Positions 2,492-57,700 of a DNA stretch of 64,000 nucleotides are shown piece by piece. Position numbers and translations under genes: made by a program. Below the pieces are notes generated by a model that was not told the DNA's origin, ran no database searches, and worked only from the letters and a program-made list of their open reading frames with translations. Source of the stretch: a virus. Numbering within the stretch: the stretch's first letter is position 1; each line of letters begins with the position of its first letter. The stretch spans positions 5,471 to 69,470 of the IMG/VR virus record IMGVR_UViG_3300017963_002783, one strand, 5' to 3'.

Positions 2492-3460
2492 ATGAAAAAA
2501 GTTTCCATCATTGTCCCCACGAGGAACGAAGAGGAGTTCATCGGGCCTTGCCTGGACTCCCTTATTCGGAACAAGGGGCTTTATCCCGAAATCGAAATCA
2601 TCGTGGTGGACGGCCACAGCACGGACCGGACAAGGGAGATTTGCGAATCCTACGGTGATGAGATCAAGTGCCTGAGCAACCCGCATAGGATTTTTCCCGC
2701 AGCCGTGAACCTTGGGGTTCTCTACGCCACGGGTGAGATCGTTATGATCGTGGGGGCCCATGCGGTTTACCAACCGGATTATGTCAAAATCTGTGTTGAT
2801 ATTCTTATGACTTCCAGTTTTCATAATGTCGGTGGCACGATCAATTACATCCCGCGCAGTCCGGGACTTATCGCCCGGGCCCTTACGATTATCAAGAGCG
2901 ACAAGTTCGGGGTGGGCAAGTCCGAGTTCCGGGTAGGGGTTGATTCCGCACAACCCGTAGATACGGTGTTCGGCGGGTGTTACTGGAAGTGGTTGTTCGA
3001 TAGAATAGGCCCGTTCGACGAAAGACTCCGGTTCAGTTCCGACCTGGACTTCAACCTGAGACTCAAGAAGGCCGGATATCGGACTGTTCTCCTGCCATGG
3101 GTCAAGACGGACTATTGGTGCCGCTCGGAGTTCAAGCCGTTTATGAAGAAGGCTTTCGAGGACGGCCAGTGGATTATCTACCCGTGGGCCATTACGGGCA
3201 GGCCGCTCAGGGGGCGCCATTTTGTTCCCTTAGCGTTCGTATCGCTCTTACCTGTGTCTATCTGGCCCTACTTGATTCTTAATTTTGCCAGATGCTTTCA
3301 GATTGGTTTCGGGAAGCGGGACTGGAAAACGGGGCTTGCCCTATCCTTTCTGTTTCCCGCTTATCATGTGTGTTACGGCACGGGATCCCTCATAGCGTTG
3401 CTTAAAGCATTCGGAGGTAAACTAGGTGAAGCACGTTCTGGTACTTGCCCCGCACGTTGA
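2492..3460 (+). CDS. GT2 family glycosyltransferase (ExoA-like)
   Basis: VSIIVPTRNEE, IIVVDGHSTDRT, FDERL..SSDLDFNLRL and C-terminal hydrophobic helices. Start refined to ATG 2492. Confidence 0.9.
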   Translation: MKKVSIIVPTRNEEEFIGPCLDSLIRNKGLYPEIEIIVVDGHSTDRTREICESYGDEIKCLSNPHRIFPAAVNLGVLYATGEIVMIVGAHAVYQPDYVKICVDILMTSSFHNVGGTINYIPRSPGLIARALTIIKSDKFGVGKSEFRVGVDSAQPVDTVFGGCYWKWLFDRIGPFDERLRFSSDLDFNLRLKKAGYRTVLLPWVKTDYWCRSEFKPFMKKAFEDGQWIIYPWAITGRPLRGRHFVPLAFVSLLPVSIWPYLILNFARCFQIGFGKRDWKTGLALSFLFPAYHVCYGTGSLIALLKAFGGKLGEARSGTCPAR

Positions 3461-4978: not shown

Positions 4979-5994
4979 CGATTCTCGTATCGGCGGCAGG
5001 AGCACCCGGAACCTACACCCTTATTAAGAAGCTCAAGGAAGACGTTCCGGATATTCGGATTATAGCCTGTGACATGCAGGAAGAAGTGGCGGCGAAGTTC
5101 ATTGCGGACGCTTACTATCAGGTTCCGCTGGCAGAATCGGCGCAATATCTTCCAGACCTTTGTGCCATTTTCGCAATGGAAAAGGTAGACGTTTTCTTTC
5201 CCACATCGAGTGCCGAGGTGCCGAAGGTAAGCAGGGAGAAGGACTTCATTGAACAGAGCGGCGTAAAGGTTCTAGTGTCCGACATCTATGGCATCAAAAT
5301 GGCCACAGATAAAGGCTACCTGTATTCAATACTGGAAAATTATGTCCCTGTCCCCAAGGTTTGTGAATCTGTTACGTGGGGACAGTTCGAAATACTCGCT
5401 CATCATTTGGGCTATCCTGACAAGAAAGTCTGCTTTAAGCCCCCCATATCCAAGGGGAGCCGAGGGTTTCGGATCATAGATGCCAAGGTTGACACGAAAA
5501 ACCAGATGCTCAGAAAGAAGCCCGGGGAGTGCCTTTCGGTCAGCATGAATCAGGTCAAGGAGTGGTTCGGGGACGACAGGTTCCTCCCCCAACTGCTTCT
5601 CATGGAATACGTCGAGGGTCCCGCTTACGACTGCATGGTCTTGGCCCACAACGGCAAGGCCCTCTTGACGACCGTCAAGACCAGGGAAAAGGAACGCTGG
5701 GGCATTATTACGGAAGGGGAGTTGATAGAAAGCCCGTCACATGTGAAGATGTGTTCCGCAATCGTTCGGGAACTCAACCTGTCGTACAACGTCAGCATCC
5801 AGTTCATAGGGGACACGCTGATAGAGGTTAACCCTCGCACCTCCACCTATATCTACGGGGACGACTTCAACGAGCCGTGGCTTGCCATACAGCTTGCCAT
5901 GGGCTGGATAACGGAAGAGGAAGTTATGGCCTATCAGGACAAAGTGCCCATAGGTCGCCGCATGGTCAGGTATATGGACCAAATATTTTATTGA
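4963..5994 (+). CDS. ATP-grasp ligase of polysaccharide-cluster type
   Basis: KPPISKGSRG, LLMEYVEG and IEVNPR ATP-grasp motifs. Confidence 0.85.
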   Translation: MLPRLTILVSAAGAPGTYTLIKKLKEDVPDIRIIACDMQEEVAAKFIADAYYQVPLAESAQYLPDLCAIFAMEKVDVFFPTSSAEVPKVSREKDFIEQSGVKVLVSDIYGIKMATDKGYLYSILENYVPVPKVCESVTWGQFEILAHHLGYPDKKVCFKPPISKGSRGFRIIDAKVDTKNQMLRKKPGECLSVSMNQVKEWFGDDRFLPQLLLMEYVEGPAYDCMVLAHNGKALLTTVKTREKERWGIITEGELIESPSHVKMCSAIVRELNLSYNVSIQFIGDTLIEVNPRTSTYIYGDDFNEPWLAIQLAMGWITEEEVMAYQDKVPIGRRMVRYMDQIFY

Positions 5995-50822: not shown

Positions 50823-52043
50823 TCACTCCTCCCATATCTCGAAAGCCTTGAGGCCCATTTCGAAAAGTGTTTCAGCCTTCCGCTTGAACTCCTGGCGACC
50901 ATCCTCGGGAATGTCGTCAAGGGCCGTGGCCCTGTGCAAAGCCAGCAGCTTAGGCCATCCCCCCGGTACGGCCTCCTTTATGGATTCTTTCAGGTCGTAC
51001 ATCTGGCTATACCAGGTTTCGGCTTCGTTCATCCCCTGAGAGGCACCAGGATCGTCTTTTGTGTCAGGGTCGCTACCTTGGCCCTCATCTGCCCCTGTTT
51101 CAGGCAGAGCCCCCTTGTGGCTCATGGTGAGATGCTTTTTCAGGCCTCTTTCGCTCTTAGCTATAAATTCGCAGTGGGGACATTTATAAGAAGGCGGAGA
51201 TTCGTCTATTATAACTTGAGGCTCGGTTTCTTCCTCGATCTGCCCCGCGTCTTTGCCCCCATTTTCAGGGAACAGTTCTTTGGTCGTTATCCGGCCCTCT
51301 TTGAGAGCTGTCGCCATTCCCCTGAGATCGACGATATCCTGGGCAGTCCATTCATCCGCTATACTGCCCCGCTCATTTTCAATCTGCCTCTGAGTGACGC
51401 CGTATTTCTTGAAGAAGTCCATGGCCTGGGCTCGGGCCACATGGATATTTTCGGGCTTGATCTTTTTAAGCTCCGCTTCCTTGGCGGCTTCGATCATCCG
51501 ATCAAGCAACCATCGCGGCATGGCCCGGACCACGGCATTTCGGATCGCCTTGCTCTGCCCGATCTGAAAAACAATGTCCTCCTGCCGATCTTTGCCCATT
51601 TTGTCACTGAGCCTCTGACTTTTCCTTTGTCGGAAAAGACGCGGACAGGTGAATCCAGTCTCCAGGTCTATGAAATAGCCCTTGAAAAGATAGTGGGTCA
51701 GGCTTTCCTCAACGTCCACATCTATAGCATCATTGCCATAGTTTCTGGCAAGGCACATCCCGGCATCAATGCTCGGCCCCTCGACTGGAACCTTTCGGCC
51801 TTTATCCTTATCCCAAACCTCCCACCGATAATAGAAAGCGGTCCCGGCCAGCTTCGCCTCTTCCAAGACGTTGTTGACAAATTTGGTAAGAGAACGCGGA
51901 TTCTGCACTGCGACAGCCGTAGTGTATTTGGTTTCCACTTTCTGGAGTGCCCTACCCTGAGAAAGCATCTCTTGGGGCACGGTGGGAGGGCCTGTAAATG
52001 ATTGAATGTTGTCCAATACTTCAGGGTCCAATGCTTCTTCCAT
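50823..52043 (-). CDS. Putative ssDNA-annealing/recombination protein with a C2H2 zinc finger
   Basis: Adjacent to the exonuclease; EGPSI and SKAIRNAV motifs; CPHC...HLTMSH finger. Confidence 0.55.
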   Translation of the reverse strand: MEEALDPEVLDNIQSFTGPPTVPQEMLSQGRALQKVETKYTTAVAVQNPRSLTKFVNNVLEEAKLAGTAFYYRWEVWDKDKGRKVPVEGPSIDAGMCLARNYGNDAIDVDVEESLTHYLFKGYFIDLETGFTCPRLFRQRKSQRLSDKMGKDRQEDIVFQIGQSKAIRNAVVRAMPRWLLDRMIEAAKEAELKKIKPENIHVARAQAMDFFKKYGVTQRQIENERGSIADEWTAQDIVDLRGMATALKEGRITTKELFPENGGKDAGQIEEETEPQVIIDESPPSYKCPHCEFIAKSERGLKKHLTMSHKGALPETGADEGQGSDPDTKDDPGASQGMNEAETWYSQMYDLKESIKEAVPGGWPKLLALHRATALDDIPEDGRQEFKRKAETLFEMGLKAFEIWEE

Positions 52044-52046
52044 AAG

Positions 52047-52859
52047 TTATATCTCCCTTCTGTGTTTTGGATTTCCTACATACGGGCAGGTCTCCCAATA
52101 CCCGCACCACTTGGGATCACACCACCAGGAGGTAGGATTGGCGGGTATAAAAACTCCTGCCTTCAGCATGTTGATGAACATTTCCAGCTTTGCGAATAGT
52201 GCCTCATAGTCCTGCTCGGTCGGAGTCATTACTTGGGTTTGTAATTCCTCCGAGGTGGGATTTCCGTTTTTGCCCCGTCGAGCTATAAGGATACTGTATT
52301 TAAACTCTGGCCGGATATGGCGGGTCTTTTCATGGACAAAAGAATAAAGAGCAGGCTGTATCTCTTTTTTGATTCGCCCCTCTTGCCATTTCATGCGAGT
52401 GGTTTTCAGGTCTCCTACTTCGGGTTTTTCCTGATAATCCATCACGCCGGCCAGAGGCAGCTCCAAACCTACATCAAGCTCAAACGGCTCCTCTATAGCG
52501 ACCGGATTGATTCCAGGGGCAACTTCTTCCCGATAAAGTTTTGTGCAGCGCAGGGTGTCATTAAGCCCTTCATTTAAGAGGCGATCTTTGGCGGGGCGGT
52601 TCGCTTTGGCAAGATAGATGCCACTTGAGATTGTCTTGACATACTTGTCGCGGGCGGCATCCTTGAGGTCATTGACGGGCAGGTCGTCCCCCTTCTGGAT
52701 TTTGTGCTTCAAATTGACTTCATTGGCGCCATGTACGCCGGTGCCTCGGGCGGCAGCGATAGAAGGCGGGATGATTTCACCTTCAATAAAGCGACGCCGG
52801 AACTGTTCGCCGCATCTAAGGGCCATGTTAAGGCTGGACTGATGGATCGCGTCGATCAT
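52047..52859 (-). CDS. PD-(D/E)XK RecB/Cas4-like exonuclease
   Basis: N-terminal C, RGTGVH, GVMD, DLKT, QPALY and C-terminal C..KWC...C. Confidence 0.85.
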   Translation of the reverse strand: MIDAIHQSSLNMALRCGEQFRRRFIEGEIIPPSIAAARGTGVHGANEVNLKHKIQKGDDLPVNDLKDAARDKYVKTISSGIYLAKANRPAKDRLLNEGLNDTLRCTKLYREEVAPGINPVAIEEPFELDVGLELPLAGVMDYQEKPEVGDLKTTRMKWQEGRIKKEIQPALYSFVHEKTRHIRPEFKYSILIARRGKNGNPTSEELQTQVMTPTEQDYEALFAKLEMFINMLKAGVFIPANPTSWWCDPKWCGYWETCPYVGNPKHRREI

Positions 52860-53019
52860 TGCCGTCCCCTTCCGGAAAGTGATGAATAAGCGACCGGAGC
52901 CTCCCGATCTGCTCCCCGATCATTTTTTTGACCAATTCGGGATCCTTGCCATTCCTCAAGATGTGGGACATGGCATCGGCGGCCATCTCAAAGTCCTTTT
53001 TCGTGCTTGTCCATTTCAT
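52828..53019 (-). CDS. Hypothetical protein
   Basis: Short ORF in the early-left operon. Confidence 0.4.
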   Translation of the reverse strand: MKWTSTKKDFEMAADAMSHILRNGKDPELVKKMIGEQIGRLRSLIHHFPEGDGNDRRDPSVQP

Positions 53020-53165
53020 GAGTAAATTGTCCTTTCCCGGATATAGCGGCGTGTGGCCCGGTCCTGAAGTTTAAGGCGAATGTAATTACCCACACACCAT
53101 CCGACACTAAGCGCACCGATAATTGCCAGTATGTGCTCCATCCAAATCATGACACTCTCCTTTGT

Positions 53166-53872
53166 GCCCCAGATGCTGCCTCCTAGCTCCAAACTTATTC
53201 ACCGTTTTCTCCACAGTACGGCTTAATCAGCAGCCCCCATGCCCGTATCCGGGGCGGTTGAGGTTGGTAGGAGGAAAAAGGTTATGCTGAAAATTTCAAG
53301 ATACGCGCTTTTGTTGATGTTGGCGGCACCCATCACCTCATTTAAGGCATCCCATCCGTTCACCCACCCTTTCGGGTGTACGCCCACCGCCAGCTAAACT
53401 GGAGGATGAGTGGTAAGCTACACTCTATACCCAATCCCGCACAGACCGTTGTCGCAAGCATCGCTTACGCTCTCCCTCGCTTACCACTCATCCAAACTGT
53501 GCCCGAGCAGTCCCGATACATGCCGTGGACTTTTGACATGCAGAGCGGTGTTGACACCTTGCCACTAGGTCGCTTGCCCGGGCGTAAACTGTGCCGGGAG
53601 CCAAATCCAGGTATGCGCTCTTACGGTGCGCTTTGAACCGACCTATTTATGTTTGACTCCCGGCTGTCAAAGAACTGTTGGGGGAGCCAGGATTCTCACC
53701 TGAACCGCGATCCCAATTAAATGCTCCAGCAGAACTATACTGCCATGATAAACAGTCAGCTTGATTGCTGGCCTTTTCGGTTACTAGCCTACTAAGGACT
53801 TGTCGCGCTCGGAGACCTTGGAGCGCAGGCTTACTAGACGGCTAAACCACTCCCCCATTTCAAAGAACTGTT
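53166..53872 (-). ncRNA. Tandem array of six stem-closed structured RNA modules
   Basis: Six closing helices with G-U pairs in the minus-strand reading, GNRA loops and ACAGUU-like linkers; no credible ORF. Confidence 0.65.
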
Positions 53873-53908
53873 CCCACCCAACCACCCCAGGTCTTTTCCT
53901 CCACCGCC

Positions 53909-54178
53909 CTAAAAAAGCAGCGACCGGATATCTATAATTAATCCCCGAATCCGTTCAGCTTCCTGCCTGATATCGCCGGATGCTCCCTGCAAAAGGCCAC
54001 CTAATGGCGGAGCGGGTGGGTCAACACCCTTTTCTGCTTGACACATCTCATCGTGTTCAATCTTGTCTTTCAATTCAGCTAAACCATCTATTGCATCTCT
54101 GAGATTGCCTAAAGCTCTGTGGATCTGCGTATGATAAGGTTCACGTTCAGCGTTAGCCGTTGTTGCTTCAAGGTTCAT
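53909..54178 (-). CDS. Hypothetical coiled-coil protein
   Basis: RBS GGGGAG before ATG 54178. Confidence 0.55.
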   Translation of the reverse strand: MNLEATTANAEREPYHTQIHRALGNLRDAIDGLAELKDKIEHDEMCQAEKGVDPPAPPLGGLLQGASGDIRQEAERIRGLIIDIRSLLF

Positions 54179-54382
54179 TTCTCTCCCCCTTTCTGTTAGA
54201 TTTATCCTCACCGCCCTCTCTGCCCCGTTCGCGGCTCGTTTATTGTTGAGTCCGTACCTGGGGGGCATGATGAGGCACGGGGAAGAACTAGACAAAAACC
54301 AGCCCTTGGCTCCAAAGCCCCATGAGCATCAGGGCCACCATGATGCCAAGGCCGATTAGCGTGGTCACTATAGATGTCTGTC

Positions 54383-54773: not shown

Positions 54774-54827
54774 ACGGTATCATTTTGCTACCAGGCTGTC
54801 AAGTTTTTTCGGTACCATTTTGCTACC
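54774..54827 (-). promoter_or_regulatory. Leftward early promoter with two operators
   Basis: Minus strand TTGACA (54802-54797), 17 bp, TACCGT; 17 bp boxes GGTATCATTTTGCTACC (54776-54792) and GGTACCATTTTGCTACC (54811-54827). Confidence 0.75.
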
Positions 54828-55880: not shown

Positions 55881-56939
55881 ATGAAGGGGAATATCTACTG
55901 GAGATTCGGGAAGCCGATTGTCAGATTCAAGGGGGTTTACAAGACTTGCCAATCATTGCAAGAGGCCGAGAGGGTTCTGACGGGCCTGAGATTCAAAGAG
56001 GATGAGGGGACATTTGATGTCAGGGATTATCAAAAAGACCAGCCGTTGGGGTTTGAAAATCTTGGAAAGCATTGGGTGGATATTCGGAGGGATGACGTGC
56101 GCTGCATCCGAAATCTTAACTACCATATCCGGCTTGCTTCAGCTTTTTTCGGGAATCGGAATGTCAAGGAGATCGGATATGCCGAGCTTGAGGACTTTTT
56201 ACGGTCCCTGCCGGCCAAACTGTCCGCTAAGAGCAAAAAAAATATCTTCACAACGCTTCATACCTTTTGGGGATGGGTACACAAAAGATACAAATTTCCC
56301 ATCCCCGAATTTCCCCAAATCAAATTTGAACTCAACTGGCGAAACACGGTTGACAAGGAGACTCAAGCCAGAATCATCGAGGAAGTCAAGCGGATCTCCT
56401 ACCACATCAACCCGAAAATCTGGATAGGAATAAAGTGGCTGGCAACCTATATCAGCATCCGGCCGATAGAGCTTATCAACATCAAGGAGGGGGATTTCGA
56501 TCTCTCGCTGGGAGTCGTCAATGTTAGATACAATAAGGAAAATAAGTCTAAAATTGTTCCTTTATTGGATGAGGATATTGAACTGGCTAAGTCTTTTCCC
56601 CAGGCCTTGCCTAGTGTTTACTTTTTTCGACATGGGCGCAGAAAAGGCGTCGCTCGTAGGCATAGGCACAGATTCGGAAAAGACTATCTATATTCTTGGT
56701 GGAGAATCGCTTGCAAAAATTGTGGAGTGGATGGAGTTGACCTGTATGGAGGGACAAGGCATTCCTCAGTACGAGCCCTTAGAGAAAGATTCACACCCGA
56801 CCAAATAAAGAAGGCCACCATGCACCACACCAATGCTGCGTTTGAGCGGTATTACCAGATAGAATTGGAGGACACCAGGAAGGTGTATCGGGGAACGACG
56901 CAGAAGGGGGAAGTGGTAGAGATGAGGAAGGCAAAATGA
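55881..56939 (+). CDS. Tyrosine recombinase / phage integrase
   Basis: IRPIEL (R), K....VPL, TRHS, MHH and ERYY (Tyr); a tRNA 3' end lies downstream. Confidence 0.88.
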   Translation: MKGNIYWRFGKPIVRFKGVYKTCQSLQEAERVLTGLRFKEDEGTFDVRDYQKDQPLGFENLGKHWVDIRRDDVRCIRNLNYHIRLASAFFGNRNVKEIGYAELEDFLRSLPAKLSAKSKKNIFTTLHTFWGWVHKRYKFPIPEFPQIKFELNWRNTVDKETQARIIEEVKRISYHINPKIWIGIKWLATYISIRPIELINIKEGDFDLSLGVVNVRYNKENKSKIVPLLDEDIELAKSFPQALPSVYFFRHGRRKGVARRHRHRFGKDYLYSWWRIACKNCGVDGVDLYGGTRHSSVRALRERFTPDQIKKATMHHTNAAFERYYQIELEDTRKVYRGTTQKGEVVEMRKAK

Positions 56940-57697
56940 AAAAGACCTCTATTGGCAATCGAATGAAAGAAAATTACGAAAATCGGTATCGAATGAAACT
57001 AACAAGGCGTACCCCCGTTATCATTCGATTAGATGGTAAAGCCTTCCATACCCTTACAAGGAGATGTGAAAAACCTTTTGATATTACATTCGCAACTTTC
57101 ATGCATACAACTGGTCTATACCTTTGCGAACATATTCAAGGTGCGAAATGTGCATATATTCAATCAGATGAAATATCAATTCTTTTAATTGATTTTGACA
57201 AGCTAACTACAGAGGCATGGTTTGATTATAATATCCAAAAAATCGTGTCTATCAGTGCGGCAATGGCATCAGCTATCTTTAGTTCTCGGTTTGGGCATTT
57301 AGCTTTTTTTGATTCACGGGCCTTTAACATCCCAAAAGATGAACTTTGTAATTATTTCATTTGGAGACAAAAGGATTGGGAGCGCAATTCTATTCAAATG
57401 CTTGCCCAAGCGTACTTTTCAACAAAGCAACTTCATAAGAAAAGCGGTTCTGATATGCACCAAATGTTACATGAGAAGGGAGCAAATTGGGCTAACTTAG
57501 ACTTGCTTTGGAAAAATGGGTGGTTTATTTGGAAAACAAACGAAGAATGGCTTCAAAATGCTGCTCCAATTTTTACCCAAGAAAGACAATATATTGAAAG
57601 ATATCTTTACCCAAATTCCACACAAGGAATTTGTGGGGGAGATAACATGCAAAGCCTTGAAAAAACAGGCATAAGTGGTGCGGAAGGCGGGACTTGA
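56936..57697 (+). CDS. Thg1-like protein (tRNA-His guanylyltransferase / 3'-5' polymerase)
   Basis: RMKENYE, IRLDGKAFH, YIQSDEISILL, FDSRAF, YFIWRQKD.RNSI. Confidence 0.92.
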   Translation: MKKTSIGNRMKENYENRYRMKLTRRTPVIIRLDGKAFHTLTRRCEKPFDITFATFMHTTGLYLCEHIQGAKCAYIQSDEISILLIDFDKLTTEAWFDYNIQKIVSISAAMASAIFSSRFGHLAFFDSRAFNIPKDELCNYFIWRQKDWERNSIQMLAQAYFSTKQLHKKSGSDMHQMLHEKGANWANLDLLWKNGWFIWKTNEEWLQNAAPIFTQERQYIERYLYPNSTQGICGGDNMQSLEKTGISGAEGGT

Positions 57698-57700
57698 ACC
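57676..57700 (-). other. attP core: 3' end of a tRNA-Leu-like gene
   Basis: Minus strand GGTTCAAGTCCCGCCTTCCGCACCA is a T-loop, acceptor strand and CCA; no 5' half; TTAC(A/C)CAA arm-like repeats on both sides. Confidence 0.8.

Follow-up and report, generated by a model that had tools for sequence, protein, structure and literature searches.

Two ribosomal-type boxA elements and a run of end-closed RNA domains in an untranslated array of a temperate phage: a possible miniature stable-RNA operon

Why should a temperate phage carry some 720 untranslated nucleotides (nt) between two small genes of its early operon? The question is raised by the minus strand of a 64-kb stretch of viral DNA (IMG/VR record IMGVR_UViG_3300017963_002783, positions 5,471 to 69,470; hereafter the window), taken from a viral contig of 69.5 kb with an estimated completeness of 58%. 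The untranslated region lies between an open reading frame (ORF) of 128 amino acids (aa) at 53909-54295 and a 44-aa ORF starting at 53150. An earlier note on this DNA had described it as an array of six different stem-closed RNA modules (M1 to M6) joined by ACAGUU-like linkers, and had proposed a small-RNA cassette cut at those linkers. Two of the linkers prove to be full ribosomal-type boxA elements, and the most likely mechanism therefore changes. We propose that the array mimics, in miniature, a stable-RNA operon of the ribosomal RNA (rRNA) or transfer RNA (tRNA) kind within the early-left transcript, a reading that we hold tentatively and at somewhat short of an even chance.

The central feature is a 13-nt sequence, AACAGUUCUUUGA, which flanks M1 on either side, oriented with the operon, in copies 193 nt apart that continue with AA (copy 1) or CA (copy 2). 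The upstream copy, boxA1 (53858-53872, minus strand, as for all array features given here; AACAGUUCUUUGAAA), ends 0 nt before M1 and has a mean probability of being unpaired of 0.61. The downstream copy, boxA2 (53665-53679; AACAGUUCUUUGACA), has a mean of 0.55; it overlaps M1 by one base, its first A, and M2 begins immediately 3' of it. The phage boxA has the GUUCUUUGA form. A search of five bacterial genomes with the pattern AGTTCTTTGAMA matched two places in a Melioribacteraceae metagenome-assembled genome (G004), where the rRNA genes were placed with Rfam. One site precedes 16S by about 90-100 nt; the other falls between tRNA-Ala and 23S, about 80 nt before 23S, and the sequences at these leader and spacer sites read AAGTTCTTTGACAG and AAGTTCTTTGAAAT. 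Within boxA2, AGUUCUUUGACA is identical over 12 nt to the 16S leader motif, and within boxA1, AGUUCUUUGAAA is identical over 12 nt to the spacer motif before 23S. A hairpin stands ahead of the motif in both leader and spacer of G004, as the M1 closing helix stands ahead of boxA2. Judged by sequence, the repeat around M1 is the boxA of ribosomal operons, found in G004 at the classic leader and spacer positions: it matches rRNA leader and spacer sequence, lies on the sense strand downstream of a promoter-like site, and is predicted to be largely unpaired.

This identity brings with it an expectation about transcription. PMC4807359 describes rrn loci with two boxA copies, one upstream of 16S and one of 23S. 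It reports that a non-coding insert of 567 bp provokes termination by Rho and that boxA, placed upstream, averts it in dependence on NusB and NusG; it further describes a Nus/SuhB complex that loops boxA to the polymerase and promotes rRNA maturation. By analogy, the two phage copies may bind NusB/NusE and confer resistance to Rho. The remaining linkers, ACAGUUUAC, ACAGUUU and UCCAGUUUAGC, have only ACAGUU in common with boxA and are not called boxA here. A lambda-type nut site was considered and rejected, as the two boxA copies are followed by no common short hairpin and the neighbouring small proteins have neither a family nor an evident arginine-rich motif.

The two boxA copies open a series of inverted repeats. 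M1 (53679-53857, 179 nt) is closed by nine pairs, UGGGGGAGU/GCUCCCCCA; M2 (53593-53664, 72 nt) by 13 pairs including one U-G; M3 (53501-53583, 83 nt) by nine pairs including one G-U; and M4 (53404-53493, 90 nt), which holds two interior hairpins, by a perfect helix of 15 pairs. M5 as drawn in the earlier note (53321-53392, 72 nt) would have a helix of 7-8 pairs and contains a CACCC-GAAA-GGGUG hairpin, and M6 (53166-53255, 90 nt), with nine closing pairs including one G-U, ends 15 nt before the next start codon. The sequence itself, an inverted/direct repeat finder and a pair table all bear out every closing helix, and the linkers are as first read: ACAGUUC, ACAGUUU, ACAGUUU and UCCAGUUU, with ACA directly after five of the six helices (M1, M2, M3, M5 and M6). 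Linker L2 (ACAGUUUAC, 53584-53592) and linker L3 (ACAGUUU, 53494-53500) have mean unpaired probabilities of 0.75 and 0.95. The value for linker L4 (UCCAGUUUAGC, 53393-53403) is 0.40, and it may pair with the start of M5 to make a small local hairpin. M5 and M6 are separated by a spacer of 65 nt (53256-53320), C/U-rich and G-poor, which looks like a candidate Rho-loading (rut) stretch.

How far do these helices exceed chance? The linker core CAGTT occurs five times in 474 nt of the minus strand, against about 0.5 expected from the 69 sites per strand in the 64 kb (Poisson P ~2e-4). In an unbiased helix test, the minus strand was cut purely at CAGTT and the length of the terminal helix of each segment was compared with 20000 shuffles of that segment. 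The observed length was reached in 251 of the 20000 for M1, 2 for M2, 28 for M3 and 1 for M4, and the stems of M4 and M2 are the two longest next to CAGTT among the 69 minus-strand sites in the window. Partition-function folds in six sequence contexts give closing-helix probabilities of 0.93-0.98 for M1, 0.98 for M2 and 1.00 for M4; M3 reaches 0.94-0.95 in five contexts and 0.34 in one. When the whole 761 nt are folded, the closing helices of M1-M4 persist in both the minimum free energy and the centroid structure, with M1-M4 and M6 as separate domains. The original picture of six stem-closed modules thus holds for M1-M4, which are robust beyond chance, while M5 never closes in context and M6 does so only sometimes.

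The folding signal resides mostly in these end-to-end helices. On the minus strand the z-scores of the whole modules, M1 to M6, are -1.74, -4.40, -2.01, -6.93, -1.73 and -2.20; with the closing stems removed they become -0.21, +0.03, -0.30, -3.43, -1.81 and +0.08, so that only the interior of M4 is clearly folded. On the plus strand the interior of M4 scores +0.15 and that of M5 -3.1. The comparison with shuffled controls that the note had proposed therefore favours the terminal helices of M1-M4 and the interior of M4 but none of the other interiors. Among the internal loops it had singled out as GNRA tetraloops, the GAAA of M5 is a clean tetraloop and no other is clean in the predicted folds. 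Within M1, a 15-nt direct repeat (53845-53831 and 53795-53781; UUAG..N..CUAGUAA, 80% identical, 50 nt apart) was found, each copy of which can make a small UAG/CUA hairpin.

Unstructured interiors are what a plainer element would also have. The region could be a structured intercistronic leader in which boxA only keeps the polymerase going, the helices are stability or processing hairpins or filler, and no discrete small RNA is made. The boxA copies and the sense orientation would be the same under this explanation, and M6, ending so close to the start codon, resembles a 5' stabilising hairpin. A succession of four end-to-end helices, each independent, with a linker in common and a reused frame, is however more than a leader would require, helices of 9-15 pairs are short for RNase III, and close relatives of the phage, described below, have no such leader. 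We regard the leader as a realistic possibility, though on balance an unlikely one.

The reused frame is seen when the modules are compared with one another. M1 and M2 have in common 24 nt spanning boxA and the 5' arm (83%) and 17 nt spanning the 3' arm and the ACAGUU linker (82%), and a repeat finder reports GGCACAGUUU as common to M2 and M3. Set in register, the closing helices of M1 and M2, and likewise those of M3 and M6, have six of nine pairs identical, including the position of the wobble, with three pairs changed on both sides; for M1 and M5, five of eight pairs are identical. These counts of positions that are still paired describe the array and are not covariation, since the items compared were picked as helices, which makes the comparison circular. 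The interiors are unrelated in sequence and in length (46-161 nt). From sequence, the array looks like a duplicated frame with exchanged contents. It is neither a CRISPR (clustered regularly interspaced short palindromic repeats) locus nor a tandem repeat, as the note had already stated: Tandem Repeats Finder finds nothing, the direct repeats are only of 24, 17, 15 and 10 nt at 80-100% identity, and the junctions are not palindromic.

Several features favour reading the array as RNA of the minus strand: boxA, an orientation-specific element that lies in the operon's sense, the wobble pairs, the interior hairpins of M4, which form only in the minus sense, and the module z-scores, which as whole modules are better on the minus strand for M2, M3, M4 and M6 and not for M5. 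All six non-Watson-Crick closing pairs are G-U or U-G in this sense, in agreement with the note. Three of these wobbles, in M2, M3 and M6, are flanked by Watson-Crick pairs on both sides; that all three read as G-U in this sense has a chance of about 1 in 8 under a symmetric DNA model.

The strand bias matters for an explanation at the level of DNA, in which the modules are small palindromic insertions at one target, either resembling miniature inverted-repeat transposable elements (MITEs) or of the hairpin-forming single-strand kind. The stems would then be terminal inverted repeats, ACAGTT and the 13-bp AACAGTTCTTTGA target-site duplications, and a single boxA would have been doubled by the insertion of M1. 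Much of the architecture is compatible with this. An exact 13-bp direct repeat brackets M1 and ACAGTT surrounds M2-M4; the inverted repeats are perfect or nearly so (15 and 13 bp) around interiors that are unrelated and for the most part without structure; on the plus strand, too, M2 and M4 score well (z -3.53 and -5.57); M1 and M5 start with TG and end with CA; and the array is absent from the closest relatives, as recent insertions would be. The wobbles, all G-U in the transcribed sense, and the minus-strand-specific interior structure of M4 speak against it, as does the asymmetry with which the direct repeats abut the inverted repeats (2 nt on the left, a 1-nt overlap on the right). The arms also differ between modules, so that one transposase could not recognise them all. 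Finally, no second copy of a module was found in the phage, in IMG/VR (arm pairs of M2 and M4) or in the phage and plasmid collections, a search that left the host genome outside. We consider this origin distinctly improbable.

Is any part of the region translated? Its largest minus-strand ORF has 54 aa, starts with GTG and has no Shine-Dalgarno sequence, and the note's view of the region as non-coding is thereby upheld. That ORF (53387-53223, or a 36-aa form with ATG) nevertheless overlaps M5, the spacer and the start of M6, and might encode a small hydrophobic protein, leaving only M1-M4 as RNA. It was called on the source contig by a gene caller (P0127), it weakly matches a 141-aa protein (P0129) in which a similar unit of 44 aa occurs twice in tandem (47% over 45 aa; library E 4.2e-4), and the closing helix of the overlapping M5 is not predicted in context. 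Apart from the missing Shine-Dalgarno sequence of the GTG form, the GAGG of the ATG form lies only 2 nt upstream. Moreover, its only matches in 1.8 billion representatives besides P0127 are two repeat-rich, borderline ones (E 1e-4 to 4e-4), to P0129 and to a repeat protein of 1230 aa, and no viral locus encodes a relative. A coding role for this part appears doubtful and somewhat less probable than the DNA-level origin. The likeness to P0129 may reflect a peptide family or translated repeat DNA.

Returning to the stable-RNA operon, there is direct support for the boxA assignment, for the helices and their formation irrespective of context, for the sense of the strand and for the lack of coding. 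From these we infer Nus recruitment, protection from Rho, cleavage at the linkers, stability of the products and function of the RNAs as steps of a model. The two boxA elements, immediately before the helices that close M1 and M2, would recruit host NusB/NusE and their partners to RNA polymerase, which would become resistant to Rho over the ~720 ribosome-free nt, including the C/U-rich spacer. As proposed for rRNA, the tethered 5' arms of M1 and M2 might be kept near the polymerase until their 3' arms emerge, favouring the end-to-end helices, and at least four independent end-closed domains (M1-M4, 72-179 nt) would fold from the transcript. The single-stranded, A/U-rich ACAGUU(U) linkers would be the likely endonuclease sites. 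The released RNAs could be shielded from exonucleases by their terminal helices, which start with G, are GC-rich and are followed by A or ACA, and the same polymerase would read on into the recombination genes.

Counter-defence functions of phages are frequently sited in the accessory region upstream of recombination genes. A bolder version of the model takes the array as a cassette in which a reusable frame of rrn boxA, GC-rich helix and ACAGUU cut site would serve to express and excise, early in infection, a changing set of unrelated RNAs of 72-179 nt. Nus factors would guard against Rho and chaperone the helices, and the RNAs would in themselves be decoys or binders aimed at host factors or defences. 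Such an accessory locus would be of an undescribed kind; we judge it improbable. If the stable-RNA operon reading is true, a temperate phage whose host is an uncultured marine or sediment organism copies the logic of the rRNA operon for small stable RNAs of its own, and the use of boxA by phages extends beyond simple antitermination. The array would also offer a compact natural scaffold from which arbitrary RNAs could be expressed and excised, and an RNA-based entry in the variable accessory region upstream of recombination genes. Should the ordinary explanations by a leader or by palindromic insertions hold, the lasting interest would be a clean ribosomal-type boxA in a temperate phage.

Several observations weigh against the stable-RNA operon and are gathered here. 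In context the closing helix of M5 is not predicted (0.00-0.02) and that of M6 is unstable and context-dependent (0.00-0.68), the interiors of M1, M2, M3 and M6 fold no better than shuffles, and the counts of pairs retained between modules are in part circular. The boxA was matched to that of G004, and the phage's own host may have a different boxA. The two copies are identical over 13 nt including flanking bases, which could represent one recent duplication, such as that of a target site around M1, instead of two sites under selection. Among the runs listed with the sequence there is none of RNA. No homologue came to light in the collections searched, and selection on the interiors is accordingly not borne out by changes that covary between genomes. 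Lastly, the array is dispensable for this group of phages, as two related loci (L004 and L177) are without any such array.

Homologues were sought, as the note had suggested, in 105 related loci, in phage and plasmid collections and in IMG/VR, and none was found. With blastn, neither the phage records nor the plasmids gave a homologue of the array. Around relatives of the exonuclease encoded downstream, 74 loci (1 + 8 + 65) were considered, and the DNA upstream showed no similarity in 8/8 and 65/65 of those compared; around relatives of the 90-aa protein encoded upstream, the array was present in 0 of 32 loci. No array was found by a profile search of genome contigs with the exonuclease alignment. 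M4 and M2 were each made into a covariance model from the one sequence; across 100 sources (905,123 bases, with about 15 duplicate or late loci left out) these gave only self-matches at E<0.01 and otherwise E>=1.8, and the arm-pair patterns of M4 and M2 had 0 matches each in IMG/VR. The 17 ORF-free gaps of at least 200 nt in the 105 related loci held no convincing boxA-led array, the largest (in L210) being an AT-rich regulatory region. A pattern of two boxA copies matched IMG/VR once, in a coding gene and on the opposite strand, and is attributed to chance; the boxA string itself gave nothing useful in a literature text search.

These results apply to a defined sample. Alignment A2 contains 31 of the 120 listed exonuclease relatives, chosen for long contigs or NCBI origin, and the loci examined exclude most of the 158 relatives in a large protein collection, among them P0004 (76%) and about 100 others. 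The closest exonuclease relatives examined, L004 (84%) and L177 (71%), have ordinary small genes or no gap at the corresponding place. The runs listed with the sequence itself are two of DNA, each of which may be its source; the contigs of the two are the same, free of variants and joints.

Another relative (L002, 68%, equivalent to L007, L009 and L175) has a 290-nt ORF-free stretch at the same position in the operon (2998-3297). It starts with a boxA-like UGCUCAUUGAAAU, two mismatches from the boxA of the window, and folds into end-closed domains such as GGGGCUAGAA...UUCUAGCCCC (z -2.48). At its end, just ahead of the ribosome-binding site of the next gene, it has a GC-rich hairpin, which the leader explanation would also accommodate. 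The stretch has no Rfam match and is not alignable to the array of the window. Comparison of the M5-M6 spacer with it is not significant (32 of 500 shuffles scored at least as high; an earlier alignment scored 21, and its shuffles 20 on average), and the small proteins encoded upstream in the two phages are unrelated. L002 thus hints at a recurring architecture, not at homology.

Does the array belong to a known class of RNA? No match at gathering score was obtained in the window with Rfam 15, which includes GOLLD, ROOL, C4, ribozymes, riboswitches, 6S and tmRNA, so the check proposed in the note raised no known family; in E-value mode five matches appeared, all at E>=3.2 and far below gathering. 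The closest parallel is the leader and spacer of an rRNA operon, which likewise has boxA twice per transcript, in each case shortly before an RNA domain whose two ends pair to close it. The 12-mers identical to those before 16S and 23S, the helix ahead of each boxA and the untranslated stretch are further likenesses. The enclosed RNAs differ in being of 72-179 nt and in matching no rRNA, tRNA or other Rfam family, and the unit lies inside a protein-coding phage operon. The processing stems of rRNA are also longer than the closing helices of 9-15 pairs seen here.

Phage RNAs offer other partial parallels. In the early RNA of T7, made from the host promoters A1-A3, hairpins at RNase III sites punctuate the series of early genes. 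Host-type boxA on an early transcript of host polymerase is likewise found in T7, where PMC3709561 describes a working boxA antitermination element behind the early promoters. The hairpins of T7 separate coding genes, whereas the array has four to six successive end-closed domains with no genes between them, in a temperate phage and with boxA twice. The C4 antisense RNA of P1 and P7 is likewise a small end-paired RNA in a phage operon transcript; it is released by RNase P, an enzyme that, according to PMC4919922, cuts non-tRNA substrates including phage regulatory RNAs. The array differs in having no Rfam C4 match and several unrelated modules instead of one. GOLLD and ROOL RNAs are, according to PMC12286853, comparable as multi-domain non-coding RNAs of several hundred nt in phages, but the array has no Rfam match to them and no conservation, and its interiors are mostly folded no more than shuffles. 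What sets the array apart from these systems is the temperate phage, the two boxA elements bracketing the first domain, the repeated frame and linker with unrelated inserts, and tRNA-sized terminal helices that start with G. We found no description of such an array in the literature, in a limited search that is a thin basis for claiming its absence from print.

Phage tRNA clusters with small stable RNAs, such as the tRNA region of T4, also place tandem, end-paired and unrelated RNAs of 70-180 nt with short spacers on one transcript. No module of the array is a tRNA by ARAGORN at default settings or by the Rfam model. One may ask whether it is instead a decayed or highly aberrant array of tRNA genes, each module of which keeps only its acceptor stem. 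M2-M6 have suitable sizes (72-90 nt), M4 is followed by U-CCA, and with M1 and M5 read from the second base, +1 is G in 6/6 modules and an A follows a 7-pair helix in 5/6, with boundaries that were chosen post hoc. At an 80% threshold with introns allowed, ARAGORN also calls M1 as a tRNA-Trp with an 85-nt intron; this call, with its mismatched anticodon stem and non-canonical T loop, was not accepted. The reading fails because the covariance-model test is negative: the Rfam tRNA model has no match at E<=10, in keeping with the absence of calls in the array by ARAGORN default. The folds have no D, anticodon or T arms, and perfect helices of 13 and 15 pairs are not tRNA-like. We rate a tRNA ancestry of this sort very improbable, the lowest of the explanations graded here.

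The defining motif of integron attC sites is the pair of terminal AAC and GTT boxes that pair with each other. An attC site was rejected here, as GTT is not part of the helices and its copies are direct repeats where attC would need inverted ones. A self-cleaving ribozyme, a CsrA sponge and a decoy for MazF sites were dropped with no matching feature, and a retron non-coding RNA was dropped with no reverse transcriptase seen nearby.

Within the phage, the array stands some 890 nt downstream of a promoter-like site, in sense orientation. The putative early-left promoter (54774-54827, minus strand), read from the sequence, combines a -35 box TTGACA (54802-54797), a 17-nt spacer and TACCGT (54779-54774); a consensus scanner left it uncalled because only the T, the A and the last T of its -10 box fit the consensus. 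Two operator-like repeats, GGTAGCAAAATG(G/A)TACC (54827-54811 and 54792-54776, minus strand), overlap it, with -35 boxes TTGAAA and TTGACA, and the related locus L002 has TTGACA at the corresponding place. The site looks like a repressor-controlled early-left promoter, and on these grounds the early-operon setting proposed in the note is reasonable. A scan of the minus strand inside the array showed no sigma-70-type promoter and no terminator-like site.

The promoter is followed by a 30-aa ORF ahead of the gene for the 90-aa protein (phrog_1273). The 128-aa ORF next to the array is entered in the protein database as an 89-aa gene, and a protein search with the 128-aa product found no relative. 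On the other side, the first gene after the array (53016-53165, minus strand) has a Shine-Dalgarno sequence, AAGGAGAG, and an ATG, and encodes the 44-aa hydrophobic product, for which no Pfam or PHROG family was found. Further 3' on the same strand follow a 63-aa ORF, a PD-(D/E)XK exonuclease (52047-52859; phrog_69, with PF12705 on its relatives) and a 406-aa phrog_3657 protein (50823-52043, minus strand). The last has a weak C2H2 zinc-finger-like stretch at residues 283-311, with all Pfam hits below gathering.

Some minor features touch the array directly. Immediately 5' of boxA1 lies a G-rich tract, GGGGUGGUUGGGUGGG (53873-53888, minus strand), for which weak pairing with 53930-53919 is possible (12 pairs, mostly G-U); M5 too contains several GGG runs. 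The trailing CUUUUUCCUCC of the M5-M6 spacer can pair with GGAGGAAAA at 53900-53892, and a long-range match of nine pairs is expected about once by chance in such a length. The 15-nt GGGAACAGTTCTTTG of the boxA1 region (53875-53861, minus strand) recurs exactly on the plus strand at 51268-51282, in the phrog_3657 gene, so that boxA1 has a perfect 15-nt complement in the downstream mRNA. This match (blastn-short E 0.036) may be due to chance. It was the best found when the phage was searched for targets complementary to the array, and none was convincing.

As to the host, the exonuclease of the phage was not found in 301 genomes of the phylum of G004. Its alignment matched 4 of 401 genomes of the phylum of another genome (G306), with moderate scores, and none of the boxA-like matches in those four lay beside detectable rRNA. 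The divergent plus-strand operon opens with a repressor/Cro-like gene (phrog_35) and also has genes for an integrase, Thg1-like, Mom-like and DnaB proteins. The attP core (57676-57700) corresponds to a tRNA 3' end (T arm, acceptor strand and CCA), and its 22-nt tRNA fragment is not diagnostic of a host, being present in at least 119 genomes of many phyla. The Thg1-like 3'-5' nucleotidyltransferase (56936-57697, plus strand; PF04446, E 3.8e-24; phrog_4717, E 8e-82) adjoins the integrase. It is of the type that repairs or edits tRNA 5' ends, and it coexists in this one phage with RNAs bearing acceptor-like ends.

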